From IMG/VR virus record IMGVR_UViG_2737471860_000002, positions 1-26,886 of that record: DNA of 26,886 nucleotides, one strand, 5' to 3'. Below are positions 21,984 through 25,177 of the stretch, piece by piece; the first letter of the stretch is position 1, and the number at the start of each line of letters is the position of its first letter. Below the pieces are notes generated by a model. That model ran no database searches. It was given only the letters and a program-made list of their open reading frames with translations, and was not told the origin of the DNA. The translations under genes were made by a program, and so were the position numbers. This DNA comes from a virus. Taxonomy: Duplodnaviria > Heunggongvirae > Uroviricota > Caudoviricetes.

Positions 21984-22194
21984 TGAGTTTTTCCTTGTAC
22001 TTCTGGCACTGCCAGAAAATGTCCCGTGTATCCACGGAGTTCCAGCCACGCATGTAGTAGCTGGCGTGTGTGCCGTCATGGCCGGTATAGTCCAGCGGTT
22101 TCGGGGGCGGACCTCCGGCCATGCGGTGCAGAACCTCCTGACGCAGGCGGTCACGCCGCCCGGCTTTCAGTGAGGCATCCCAGCCTTTACCCAT
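21967..22194 (-). CDS. Small basic hypothetical protein (75 aa) immediately after the endolysin
   Basis: 8-nt overlap with the endolysin stop, consistent with translational coupling. Confidence 0.45.
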   Translation of the reverse strand: MGKGWDASLKAGRRDRLRQEVLHRMAGGPPPKPLDYTGHDGTHASYYMRGWNSVDTRDIFWQCQKYKEKLNAQNE

Positions 22195-22792
22195 ATCCCC
22201 CCCGCGTGGCGGACATGATGCCTGGAGGGGTATTGATGATTTCCAGACAGGCGTCGGTCAGCTTTTCCATGCGGTTAAACCATCCGTTCAGGTATTTGCC
22301 CTGGGCGGGTTTTGATTTGATGATGTCGGCATAAAAGCGGGAACGACGGACAATGCAGCGGGTCAGCAACCAGTCCGGGGTGGACAGGCTCACGGCCTTA
22401 CGGGTACGCGGGCCGATGATGCCGTCAGCATCCACATCAGCGGCTTCCTGCAAAATCCTGATGGCTTTTTTAACGCCATGCTGAACCGCCGCATCGAACA
22501 CAAACATCGCCACGCCATCAGGCCACTGGTCACATCCGGCAGGCAGCCAGTAATCGCGCCAGTAAATCTGCGCAACCTGTTCGCGGGTCAAATCCCTGAT
22601 GCGGGTATCCGGTTTGCCGTCGCCGTTGACATCAGTTTTGCCATCAATCACACCGTCGCGGCGGTCAGAAATGCCGTATTTGGTTTCACCGCCACGGTCA
22701 GTGGGGTCATTGACATAGACGCCTTCGATATCGGGACGCAGAATAAAATTCAGCGCATGCTCAAAGGCTGGGGAGAATTTTTGATTTTCCAT
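22187..22792 (-). CDS. Endolysin, GH108-type lysozyme with C-terminal peptidoglycan-binding domain
   Basis: 201 aa; N-terminal ...DIEGVYVNDPTDRGGETKYGISD... matches the GH108 signature (EGGY, NDP.D.GG.T..GI) as I recall it; first gene after the Mor-like gene. Confidence 0.75.
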   Translation of the reverse strand: MENQKFSPAFEHALNFILRPDIEGVYVNDPTDRGGETKYGISDRRDGVIDGKTDVNGDGKPDTRIRDLTREQVAQIYWRDYWLPAGCDQWPDGVAMFVFDAAVQHGVKKAIRILQEAADVDADGIIGPRTRKAVSLSTPDWLLTRCIVRRSRFYADIIKSKPAQGKYLNGWFNRMEKLTDACLEIINTPPGIMSATRGGYG

Positions 22793-22804
22793 AAAAGCAC
22801 CTGT

Positions 22805-22831
22805 GAAGCAGATTTAAACGTGGTCTGCTTC
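22805..22831 (-). promoter_or_regulatory. Hairpin (8-bp stem GAAGCAGA/TCTGCTTC, 11-nt loop) immediately upstream of the endolysin ribosome-binding site
   Basis: Inverted repeat read directly at 22805-22812 and 22824-22831. Confidence 0.4.
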
Positions 22832-22847
22832 ATGGTGCCGGAGGCAT

Positions 22848-22871
22848 AAAAAAAGCCGGATTTACCGGCTT
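22848..22871 (-). terminator. Intrinsic-terminator-like hairpin plus U7 tract directly downstream of the Mor-like gene; copy B of the duplicated 38-bp element
   Basis: Stem 22853-22859 pairs with 22865-22871; plus-strand A7 at 22848-22854. The wider element GGAGGCA-N-AAAAAAAGCCGGATTTACCGGCTTCA-N-TGA spans 22840-22877. Confidence 0.55.
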
Positions 22872-22877
22872 CATTGA

Positions 22878-23327
22878 TTAAGGGCGTCGTGGCGGACGAC
22901 GAACGGGGTGAGGCAGGTTCGGGGAGTGGTAGAACAAATCCGGCTGGTATTTATTACGCTCCAGACGCCGCATCCGTTTGATGGCCTTGTAGACGGTTTT
23001 ATACGTCACTCCGTAACGCTGAACCAGTTCAGGAATATTATGGCCGTTAAAATCACGCCAGATACGCATATCCCGGACAAGATTCTCCAGAATATTCCCC
23101 CTCGGAACATAAACCTGCATCCCGCCAATATGGCGACAAATCGCCACAACCAGCTCAAGGGAATGAGCAGGGTCTGCGCCAATCCGGGCCAGCTCTTTAC
23201 GCAGCAGTGCGTTCAGTTCAGAAAGTAACGCCGGATAAGCGGTGTTTTCCTGGTAATCGTTAAGATATTCCAGAACGCTGTCGTCCCGAAGGTCTTCGAA
23301 TAAATCCTGCTCTTTCATCTGTTTCAT
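22878..23327 (-). CDS. mor: Mor/C-family transcriptional activator
   Basis: 149 aa; strong resemblance by memory to Mu Mor (DLF.DL.DD..L..L, ALLAELN.LLR.EL.R.G.DPAHSLE.VVAIC.H.GG.QVY.PRG, RD.RIW.DFNG.N..EL...YGVT..TVYKAI.RMRR); lies directly after gemA as in Mu. Confidence 0.7.
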   Translation of the reverse strand: MKQMKEQDLFEDLRDDSVLEYLNDYQENTAYPALLSELNALLRKELARIGADPAHSLELVVAICRHIGGMQVYVPRGNILENLVRDMRIWRDFNGHNIPELVQRYGVTYKTVYKAIKRMRRLERNKYQPDLFYHSPNLPHPVRRPPRRP

Positions 23328-23875
23328 ACAGCAATTCTCCCGCTGTTTCGTGCGCGGGCATATGCACTGGTCAGTGCATCATAGCCGCGCAGCTCCCGCC
23401 CGGATGGGCTTACAGGTAAAGGCACACCATGTCGGGCAAAGGCTTCCCGGATGCAGCGCATATGCCACTGTTTGAGCGTTTCGAGCACAACCTGCAACGA
23501 TTTCCCGTGACACCAGGCCAGAGTGGAAACACCCTGGCCGCCATTACGTCTGGCCGTCAGGCGTTCAACGTATTTGTCCAGCGCGGCGTCGCTGCTATCA
23601 GCGACAAAGCCATCCTGAAACATCTGCTGCCAGATTTTATAAATCTTCTCGCGCGGTGTGACATACCCCTTAAAGCGACGGCGGGGATGTTTTTTCTGCT
23701 TTTTAAAACCGCGCTCTTTCATGGCATCGAGCACACGTTCCAGTTGTGCGACGGTCAGCTCGCGGCAACTGGTCTTGCCTGTGCACTGCACCAGAAAGGC
23801 GCGGTAAGTGTCATCGTCGAGTTGTAGATCACGACGGGCGACATGAATTAATTTAATCAGGGATGTGCGATTCAT
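23324..23875 (-). CDS. gemA: GemA-like protein (Mu gp16 family)
   Basis: ORF track gives a start at 23911; I prefer the ATG at 23875 (MNRTSLIKLIHVARRDLQLDDDTYRAF...), preceded by GGAGG. Position upstream of mor as in Mu. Confidence 0.65.
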   Translation of the reverse strand: MNRTSLIKLIHVARRDLQLDDDTYRAFLVQCTGKTSCRELTVAQLERVLDAMKERGFKKQKKHPRRRFKGYVTPREKIYKIWQQMFQDGFVADSSDAALDKYVERLTARRNGGQGVSTLAWCHGKSLQVVLETLKQWHMRCIREAFARHGVPLPVSPSGRELRGYDALTSAYARARNSGRIAV

Positions 23876-23895
23876 TATCGTACCTCCGAAAAAGA

Positions 23896-23915
23896 GGCGG
23901 TGCGGCAACACCGCC
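23896..23915 (-). promoter_or_regulatory. Hairpin (7-bp stem GGCGGTG/CACCGCC, 6-nt loop) followed on the minus strand by UCUUUUU, immediately upstream of the gemA RBS
   Basis: Inverted repeat read directly; terminator-like on the minus strand, and it also lies in the 5' leader of the plus-strand ORF. Confidence 0.4.
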
Positions 23916-23947
23916 AGAATCCACTCACTAAACAGAGGAAACTTTTT

Positions 23948-24214
23948 ATGAAAAACAGTGAACAGCCTTATGATGTTGCAGGGTATGTCATTGCCTCAAG
24001 GTTGCTGATACTCCTTGTCAGAAAGGGGCTGATTACCGCAGAGGAAGGCAAAACGATCCTCGAAGCCGCAGCAAGCGGAGCGGCAGAGGCTCCGGCATTG
24101 AGAACAACGAATAATCCCATTCTGCAAATATCACAGCTAATCACTGATACCATCAGTTTGTTAGACCAAGATTCTGATGAATATCAAAAGCCTCAGCCAT
24201 CTGAGCATCCGTAA
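23948..24214 (+). CDS. Hypothetical opposite-strand small protein (88 aa)
   Basis: ORF track gives 23900..24214; I place the start at the ATG at 23948, with AGAGGA 8-9 nt upstream. Mixed charged/hydrophobic composition. It is the only plus-strand candidate in the window, and its 3' end is convergent with and overlaps the next minus-strand gene by about 60 nt. Confidence 0.4.
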   Translation: MKNSEQPYDVAGYVIASRLLILLVRKGLITAEEGKTILEAAASGAAEAPALRTTNNPILQISQLITDTISLLDQDSDEYQKPQPSEHP

Positions 24215-24467
24215 GAATATCTTTATTTGATAGTCCCAGCCTGCGACGAATGTATTCCTCGCGGGCTGCTTCATTTTGTAGCGCCACGGCAGCTTCCACC
24301 TGGTTCATTTCACGGTTAATAATGCTCCGGACTTCTCTGGCGGTGAGGTCATGCTCAATACCATATTTAACGATATCGTGCATACGTTCCAGCATCTTTA
24401 AATTAGCCATGACGCCATCAATATCAACTGGTGTGAATTTCATTTCTTTATTCTCTGGTTTATTCAT
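24153..24467 (-). CDS. Hypothetical early-region protein (104 aa)
   Basis: Start placed at 24467 (MNKPENKEMKF...), preceded by AAGAGG 9 nt upstream; 8-nt overlap with the upstream gene. Confidence 0.55.
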   Translation of the reverse strand: MNKPENKEMKFTPVDIDGVMANLKMLERMHDIVKYGIEHDLTAREVRSIINREMNQVEAAVALQNEAAREEYIRRRLGLSNKDILTDAQMAEAFDIHQNLGLTN

Positions 24468-24642
24468 TTCGTAATACCTCTTCGCAATAAAAGATTTCAC
24501 TGGGATAACGTTTTTGTATGCGCTCCATCACCTGCATACACACCTGCTCTGTGGGCCAGATTTTTTCTGTTACCGGAATGGCATCACAGGCATCATTTCC
24601 ACAGGTGCCAACCAGCAGGACAAAGCCAATTAACTTAATCAT
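24460..24642 (-). CDS. Small Cys-containing protein with N-terminal signal/TM segment (possible lipoprotein, non-canonical lipobox)
   Basis: Start at 24642 (MIKLIGFVLLVGTCGNDAC...) with AGGAA upstream and an ATGATTAA-type overlap with the upstream stop. The longer track ORF would overlap the upstream gene by about 100 nt. Confidence 0.5.
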   Translation of the reverse strand: MIKLIGFVLLVGTCGNDACDAIPVTEKIWPTEQVCMQVMERIQKRYPSEIFYCEEVLRNE

Positions 24643-25177
24643 GCTCGCTGATTTCCTGTGTTTCCGCCGGAACTGGTGAATAATCAAGAATGAGATAGCG
24701 CAGGACGTGGTCGGTGATATTCCAGCCACTGGAGCCACAAATAAAACGACCCAGCCGGATATCGATATAAGCCATCACAAAACGGGGCATTCCCTGTTTG
24801 CACATCTCGTCATCCACTTCAGCAACGATGTAAACCGACTCGCAGGTCAGTACGCCTGTCGCAAATTCTTTTGCCAGTGCCGGAATGGCATTGCCTTCCA
24901 GCCAGGGCAAAGAGCGGCGGAACGCGCACCATTGAGCATCATCAACATCGGGGTGTTCAGTTGTTGCGTTTCGTCTTACTGGCGGCGTTGGACGAGGGCG
25001 CGGAACGTCATAAAATCCATTGCATTCAGTGAGAACTCCGGCATCAACCGCGTCACGCAGGAAATACACCATTGAGGAAGGTGGCATCTTCATTTTTTCA
25101 GCCAGAACCCCGCAGGTCAGACGCCCGTAAGCCCGTAATAATGTGCTGACCCCATTCAGAACTTTTGCATCAATCAC
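24635..25177 (-). CDS. Hypothetical early-region protein (180 aa), possible N-terminal HTH
   Basis: ORF 3 nt downstream of the 182-aa gene; no family recognised. Confidence 0.55.
   Translation of the reverse strand: MIDAKVLNGVSTLLRAYGRLTCGVLAEKMKMPPSSMVYFLRDAVDAGVLTECNGFYDVPRPRPTPPVRRNATTEHPDVDDAQWCAFRRSLPWLEGNAIPALAKEFATGVLTCESVYIVAEVDDEMCKQGMPRFVMAYIDIRLGRFICGSSGWNITDHVLRYLILDYSPVPAETQEISEHD

Follow-up and report, generated by a model that had tools for sequence, protein, structure and literature searches.

Whether a small open reading frame (ORF) on the strand opposite to a phage early operon is a genuine gene, an acquired accessory gene or an antisense artefact was the question raised by positions 23,876 to 24,214 of the viral record IMGVR_UViG_2737471860_000002. 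The stretch analyzed, hereafter the window, comprises 26,886 nucleotides (nt); all prophage coordinates refer to it, and labels such as L001, L009 and L023 designate comparison loci. The window is a Mu-like prophage with its genes on the minus strand. Its DNA matched Mu, SfMu, D108 and Yersinia Mu-like phages, and Pfam detected GemA, Mor, a GH108 endolysin, a Gp11 C-terminal domain protein and Gam in the same order as in Mu. By sequence comparison, the plus-strand ORF was identified as the orthologue of phage Mu gene 15 (gp15, Mup15), so that the preliminary description of this DNA had noticed a real gene without recognizing which one it was.

The coding sequence was located at 23948..24214 on the plus strand (ATG at 23948, stop at 24212-24214) and encodes 88 amino acids (aa); the open frame from stop to stop is longer than 88 codons and begins with a GTG at 23900. 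A Shine-Dalgarno motif AGAGGA lies at 23934-23939 on the same strand with an 8-nt spacer to the ATG, in agreement with the preliminary description. On one side, gemA (23324..23875, minus strand, start at 23875; PF06252, E=5.7e-34) is divergent from the ORF with 72 nt between the two starts. On the other side, a homologue of Mu gp14 (E15) at 24153..24467/24500 on the minus strand is its convergent partner, and the 3' end of the latter is overlapped by 62 nt, which bears out the described position between gemA and the upstream early genes. The gp14-like protein of the window shared 71% identity with Mu gp14 and had homologues in all seven aligned lineages. The ORF had also been called the only plus-strand candidate in 27 kb, which was too strong, as the window contains dozens of plus-strand ORFs with 80 aa or more. 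What stood was its special placement: judged from coordinates, the other plus-strand ORFs appear to sit within minus-strand genes, and the 88-codon ORF fills the minus-strand coding gap of 277 nt between gemA and the gp14-like ORF, which is the sole sizeable one.

The homology search that had been proposed gave a clear result. The window protein and Mu gp15 shared 54% identity over 87 aa without gaps in BLASTP (93 bits, E=8e-32, 71% positives), and the window protein matched phrog_8747 over residues 1-86 at E=7.1e-26. Matches in Mu, SfMu and Yersinia Mu-like phages were also obtained by tblastn. In Mu, an 88-aa ORF occupies the identical place and strand, with a gemA spacer of 70 nt and a gp14 overlap of 62 nt. 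Thus length, position, opposite-strand orientation and gp14 overlap are all alike, and Mu gp15 was the only specific structural match, whereas 46% of the residues differ, mostly in the middle and C-terminal part. Both the full-length similarity and the agreement in position, strand and gp14 overlap place the protein in the Mu gp15 family (PHROG 8747).

The gene and its protein are already known and annotated. Mu gene 15 has been annotated since the Mu records of 1991 and 2002; the 1991 'Mu left end' record M64097 contains a longer version as putative ORF F-134 (UniProt Q38493), and the equivalent gene of SfMu is annotated as gp16. The same gene of 267 nt is predicted by the Prokaryotic Genome Annotation Pipeline (PGAP) in E. 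coli prophages with 99%, 94% and 72% DNA identity to the window, and WP_072035588.1, from the 99%-identical prophage, is identical to the window protein and already present in RefSeq. The Mu-like prophage of E. coli W carries a gp15 that is identical to the one in Mu. In the searchable literature, nothing on gene 15 (Mup15/gp15) was found.

However, the two public Mu reference annotations differ as to which strand is coding in the interval from gp14 to gemA. In RefSeq NC_000929 the gene is Mup15/gp15 on the complement strand (NP_050619.1; 891-1157 of L003), whereas the revised GenBank record AF083977, whose annotation update has been acknowledged (PMC9239132), instead carries here a forward-strand 55-aa ORF, Mu_54 (AAF01092.2; 2126-2293 of L001), together with a 'semi-early promoter'. 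Mu_54 lies on the DNA of gp15 but on the opposite strand. The window contains its counterpart, a 61-aa ORF at 23968-24153 on the minus strand, which is the competing ORF named in the preliminary description and was judged not to be coding. If this minus-strand ORF, coupled to gp14, were the real gene, the plus-strand ORF would be its shadow. Such a view agrees with the choice of the AF083977 curators, who placed Mu_54 on the forward strand rather than gp15, and with the fact that the minus-strand ORF is open in both the window and Mu, with a start on or adjoining the gp14 stop; in the window it begins in a TGATG overlap with that stop, which resembles translational coupling. The differences between the window and Mu at codon positions 1, 2 and 3 (23, 19 and 36, respectively) also fit either frame, because the plus-strand ORF and the minus-strand 61-aa ORF share third codon positions, so that the excess at position 3 shows coding but not which strand is coding, and the wobble test cannot tell the strands apart in this pair. 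In its place, the ratio of nonsynonymous to synonymous substitution rates (dN/dS), conservation at BLOSUM level, openness of the frames in other lineages and distant homologues were used.

The comparisons pointed to the plus strand. The Nei-Gojobori dN/dS between the window and Mu was 0.31 in the plus frame and 0.51 in the minus frame. In the independent clade L046-L060, the ratio of the proportions of nonsynonymous and synonymous differences (pN/pS) in the gp15 frame was 0.2-0.4 in most pairs, with the order of codon positions 3 > 1 > 2, and this substitution pattern in relatives fits selection on the plus frame. The same DNA that gave 93 bits between the window and Mu in the plus frame gave 29 bits in the minus frame (40% identity over 48 residues). 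No PHROG match and no Pfam or database family was found for the minus-strand 61-aa ORF, whereas the plus-strand protein has distant homologues. The minus-strand ORF differs between the window (61 aa) and Mu (55 aa) in both length and ends; by contrast, the plus-strand ORF has exactly 88 codons in 20 of 20 window-type and Mu-type loci. In most other lineages, several stops interrupt all three minus frames across the gene, while the plus-strand ORF is intact in all of them. Only in the window and Mu types is the minus-strand ORF open, and a conserved early-strand ORF of the Mu_54 type was not seen in other lineages. Long open stretches on the minus strand of D108 correspond to an in-frame upstream extension of the gemA ORF and to an 80-aa ORF over the gemA start, neither of which abuts gp14.

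These results clearly favoured the complement-strand Mup15 annotation over Mu_54 and indicated that the plus-strand ORF is the gene. Since diverged homologues occupy the same place and strand, the Shine-Dalgarno motif is conserved, the plus frame is under purifying selection and the rival frame is mostly closed, the ORF is taken as genuine; the antisense artefact that the preliminary description had allowed for was considered highly improbable. The same evidence bears on the proposal that both strands code, with gp15 and a Mu_54-like ORF forming a true antiparallel overlapping pair in the window/Mu clade. Both frames are indeed open in the window and Mu types, and the minus-strand ORF is well placed for coupling to gp14; nevertheless, that ORF is unconserved outside the clade, its translation is without a detectable family, and the minus-frame similarity between the window and Mu is at the level expected from the shadow of a conserved frame with which third positions are shared. 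This proposal was regarded as very unlikely indeed, and the Mu_54-type ORF is most likely an open shadow frame of gp15.

More distant relatives extended the conservation of place and strand well beyond the Mu type. A filter-free hidden Markov model (HMM) search of 1.8 billion representative proteins returned 16 matches at E <= 1e-3, almost all of 60-119 aa, and an N-terminal motif, [YF]D[VIL]AG[YF]..A.N.L..LV.KG.I..EEA..I, was present in the retrieved relatives. About 10 diverged Mu-like prophage lineages with a gp15 homologue were distinguished; in the nine with enough flanking sequence, the homologue runs opposite to the early operon and convergently overlaps the gp14 homologue by 20-98 nt. 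Every lineage in which the gene begins with ATG has a purine-rich Shine-Dalgarno motif (GAGGA, AAGG, AGGAG or GGAG) in the 20 nt ahead of that codon, and the gp15 start is 69-74 nt from the gemA start in 7 of the 8 representative loci analyzed. Four other genes lie between gp15 and gemA in L026. Every gp14-like locus retrieved also carries an opposite-strand gp15-like ORF, with the exception of one recent deletion. When genome contigs were searched with profiles from the gp15 and gp14 alignments, no relative was confirmed.

The 119-aa ORF of D108, which is unannotated (phrog_38610) and lies between gemA and gene 14, illustrates how far this conservation reaches. Its place, strand and convergent gp14 overlap are as in the window, and it has the N-terminal helical-hairpin motif and a downstream hairpin with a U-tract in common with the window gp15. 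In contrast, its DNA is not alignable with that of the window, it has an N-terminal extension of 26 residues, and its C-terminal half is different. The D108 ORF and the window protein match phrog_32893 with the same N-terminal segment, and the homology link between them is transitive via this family; the direct profile comparison was weak (hhalign probability 15%).

The exceptional deletion was found in the Mu-type prophage of E. coli JCKP02 (L009, 826-936), in which gp15 was lost by a clean deletion between two ATCA repeats. It removes the DNA between a point slightly ahead of the Shine-Dalgarno motif and roughly codon 70, leaving both hairpins, which are described below, and gp14 intact. Together with truncated or frameshifted variants, this prophage indicates that gp15 is dispensable at least for prophage carriage, and L009 represents a natural gp15 knockout which could be used experimentally. 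Five family members (P0006, P0009, P0011, P0013 and P0014) have the N-terminal half in common and then diverge abruptly or end early, which looks like frameshifts arising through pseudogenization or assembly errors. In addition, three stretches of the 536-aa protein P0016 matched the gp15 profile (E=3e-4), and they may represent a repeated helical module elsewhere or noise.

Downstream of the gene, a candidate Rho-independent terminator of the gp15 unit was detected at 24237..24278 on the plus strand, with a stem formed by 24237-24249 and 24256-24268 and the tail CTTCATTTTG at 24269-24278. The hairpin begins 22 nt past the gp15 stop and is antisense to the gp14 codons Asn65-Leu77, which belong to the conserved motif N65-x-x-A68-R...R-R-x-L77-G78. 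A hairpin followed by a U-tract was present after the gp15 stop in every lineage, and scans of two diverged loci gave a long plus-strand hairpin and T-run 30-50 nt past the gp15-like stop. Because the gp14 alignment is codon-anchored and gap-free here, synonymous, strand and covariation tests were possible. The folding energy of the hairpin in the gp15 sense was -17 to -25 kcal/mol, compared with means of -5 to -11 kcal/mol after synonymous recoding of gp14 (z of -2.6 to -4.8; P <= 0.014 for each of the 9 lineages with both codon models, although these are not independent trials because the lineages are related). Of the gp15 and gp14 senses, the former gave the more stable hairpin in 9 of 9 lineages. 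Among 12 distinct sequences, 90% of the cells were paired, compared with 39-55% in slid controls; changes on both sides were observed in 5 of 13 pairs, and none of 500 shuffles attained the observed covariation score. Several of the pairs are often G·U, e.g. pair 18·39, which is U·G in 9 of the 12 sequences, and such pairs are valid only on the gp15-sense RNA because the opposite strand would give A·C mismatches. The element at 24237-24278 is thus probably gp15's own Rho-independent terminator written into the reading frame of gp14. An Rfam search returned no meaningful match. Within the gp14/gp15 overlap, a weak terminator-like hairpin on the minus strand (24192-24205, 5-base-pair stem, tail GCTTTTGATA) was also observed, which probably arose by chance, as the region held 3 such sites where 1.1 were expected.

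A strand-specific terminator hairpin under selection could also be explained by a function of the RNA itself, namely a cis-antisense plus-strand RNA, spanning the DNA between the gemA-proximal hairpin and the terminator within gp14, which would lower early read-through into gemA-mor by transcriptional interference or RNase III, with the ORF being incidental or secondary. The unit converges on the early operon and would be fully complementary to the gp14-gemA junction, a conserved hairpin is present at its other end as well, and the constraint on much of the protein is modest, all of which suits such a role. It leaves unexplained, however, why lineages whose DNA no longer aligns, such as D108, L026 and L027, keep a Shine-Dalgarno motif, a protein motif and an intact ORF of comparable length, and why pN/pS is 0.2-0.4 with codon positions in the order 3 > 1 > 2. 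An explanation by RNA alone was therefore considered improbable, and RNA and protein roles are not mutually exclusive.

The preliminary description had further suggested that the ORF could be an independently expressed moron. Morons of lambdoid phages are extra genes with their own promoter and terminator which are expressed from the prophage. Like them, gp15 is small and dispensable, has its own Shine-Dalgarno motif and by its orientation is independent of the operon around it, and the hairpin with U-tract, the covariation and the synonymous null model argue for a terminator of its own, so that the idea of a self-contained unit looks sound in this respect. Unlike morons, gp15 occurs in all sampled Mu-like lineages bearing gp14 instead of sporadically, and no clear promoter was found for it. 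The GC content of gp15 (0.48-0.51, compared with 0.51-0.55 in the gemA flank) did not indicate a foreign origin, and neither the sporadic presence nor the atypical base composition expected of a moron was found. Conserved with gp14 in Mu-type early regions and of ordinary base composition, gp15 is not a recently acquired sporadic moron.

Based on these results, the plus-strand ORF is very probably a genuine, translated, non-essential orthologue of gp15, an 88-aa cytoplasmic three-helix bundle encoded by a compact unit which runs against the early operon and ends in a terminator within gp14 codons. The unit would comprise the Shine-Dalgarno motif, the ORF and, concealed among codons of the convergent gp14, a Rho-independent terminator; its promoter, which would be weak or dependent on an activator, could lie at the gemA start or close to it. 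Since the unit converges on the early operon and its RNA would be complementary to the gp14-gemA junction, gp15 expression and transcription from the early promoter (Pe) are expected to be mutually antagonistic, and gp15 would therefore be made mainly when Pe is quiet, as in the prophage. Low-level early transcription and gem expression have been reported in Mu lysogens (PMC3820752), and transcription of gp15 could damp leaky read-through towards gemA and mor. The protein itself may be a small accessory factor that binds or oligomerizes by means of the conserved helical hairpin at its N-terminus.

Several observations weigh against this reading, among them the TGATG junction, the choice of the AF083977 curators and the shared third positions given above. 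The protein is under no more than moderate selection, with a dN/dS of 0.6 between the two most closely related window-type variants. The U-tract is largely dictated by Asn, Lys, Gln and Glu codons of gp14, which gives the synonymous-codon test low power, and selection on the tract is inseparable from selection on the gp14 protein because those codons largely fix it. A consensus sigma-70 scan of this region gave no plus-strand promoter; with a position-weight matrix, a weak candidate TTAATC-17-TATCGT (23853-23858 / 23876-23881, plus strand, 6.9 bits) was obtained, which overlaps the gemA start codon, is weaker in Mu and weaker or absent elsewhere, and is not conserved in position. No transcript, ribosome-profiling or proteomic data for gp15 were found in the searchable literature, and Pfam, PADLOC, Protein Data Bank (PDB) sequence and fold searches pointed to no function.

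A stronger version of the proposal would regard gp14/gp15 as a conserved convergent two-gene switch, in which transcription of gp15 in the prophage from a repressor-independent promoter, halted by the terminator within gp14 codons, would block or destroy leaky early transcripts before they reach gemA-mor. Under this scheme, gp15 transcription would serve as a safety catch on lytic commitment, full Pe activity would silence gp15, and the protein could add a lysogen-specific function, such as exclusion or the modulation of a host or phage partner. We consider the scheme rather unlikely at present. A precedent for what a gene placed in this way might do is available in the Mu-like Pseudomonas phage Fc02, where olg1 and gene 10 overlap on opposite strands and one set, which the lysogen expresses, mediates superinfection exclusion (PMC9936078). 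The likeness lies in opposite-strand overlaps within an early/regulatory region of a transposable phage and is a functional analogy only; the Fc02 locus differs in lying beside the repressor and ner, and no sequence relationship is expected.

The structure of the window protein was modelled by AlphaFold2 with a 13-sequence alignment, and gp15 is predicted to be a generic small three-helix bundle, with helices at residues 8-25, 31-46 and 61-75 and polar or acidic disordered ends. The mean predicted local distance difference test (pLDDT) score was 75, rising to about 90 over residues 11-40, and the ends were of low confidence. The conserved part corresponds to the first helical hairpin, while the linker, the third helix and the acidic tail are variable; the overlap with the variable C-terminal tail of gp14 itself falls on the last ~20 residues. 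No match was found in PADLOC-DB for the window protein, the D108 ORF, P0012 or P0018, the PDB sequence search with gp15 gave nothing below E=0.03, and the Foldseek search of the gp15 model against the PDB gave nothing below E=1. The sole return of the BFVD search was Mu's own ORF Q38493. A SHOCT-like domain (PF22746) was considered for residues 23-40 and rejected, with 17.5 bits against a cut-off of 27 and a weak match in only 3 of 13 members.

At the other end of the unit, a GC-rich hairpin (23896..23915, 8 pairs of which 6 are GC) is located between the divergent starts of gemA and gp15. The preliminary description had assigned it to the leader of the plus-strand ORF, and the hairpin is real; its assignment changed, since it scored as a terminator-like element on the minus strand, where TCTTTTT comes after it and directly precedes the gemA ribosome-binding site; the plus strand has no T-run behind it. 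An identical stem at this position was found in the window, Mu, D108 and the L023/L032 types, and a different GC-rich hairpin in L027 and L026. The hairpin travels with the gp15 cassette, because it is kept in L026 although gp15 and gemA are four genes apart there. A T-run follows it in the sense of the early operon in most lineages, and on both strands in L023. The most likely role of this hairpin is to attenuate or end transcription of the early strand before gemA is reached; alternatively, the 5' end of the gp15 mRNA or a cassette boundary could lie here, and the hairpin would fall in the 5' untranslated region of gp15 if transcription begins further upstream.

Promoter searches on both strands gave weak and inconsistent candidates. 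The weak minus-strand ones lie just upstream of the hairpin, at the site of the 'semi-early' gem promoter of Mu, with the -35 element over the gp15 start codon. At this site, the window (23916-23990, minus strand) has a very weak TTTTCA-16-TTTAGT (3.2 bits), whereas L023 has a much better TTGAAA-17/18 (8-9 bits). Independent expression of the gem operon may thus differ among these phages, because the match is poor in the window and better in L023. In the early-strand RNA of the window (23876-23950), CCUCU, the complement of the gp15 Shine-Dalgarno motif, can pair with GGAGG of gemA around the hairpin, and the same pairing was found in minimum free energy folds for Mu (L001), L023 and L027. As predicted from these folds, the pairing would mask translation of gemA in read-through RNA, but RNA started at the annotated semi-early promoter would escape it; the pairing may equally be a trivial by-product of two divergent Shine-Dalgarno motifs.

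As far as shown here, the case for the complement-strand annotation, the near-obligate gp14-gp15 pairing and the terminator embedded in gp14 are undocumented in the searchable literature. The comparative evidence bears directly on the conflict between Mup15 in RefSeq and Mu_54 in the revised GenBank record, and the hairpin over conserved gp14 codons provides a tidy example of dual coding. The gp14-gp15 pair may also matter for how much early transcription reaches gemA and mor, and it would offer a defined, readily tested target in the poorly understood 'semi-essential' early region of Mu-like phages.

Two further differences from Mu were observed in the neighbourhood of this locus. Where Mu has gp13 (Cys-rich, 60 aa), the window has an unrelated 61-aa ORF at 24463-24645 on the minus strand, without a Pfam match, the N-terminus of which is hydrophobic and signal-peptide-like (MIKLIGFVLLVGTCG...). 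Unlike in Mu, no gp18-gp20/C block is present in 22187-23327, and the Mor gene identified by Pfam (22878-23327, minus strand) is followed directly by the endolysin gene (GH108 and PG_binding_3); a single activator of the Mor/C type appears to be present, because the Mor-family gene adjoins the endolysin gene and the block is missing. The same layout was found at this position in L026.

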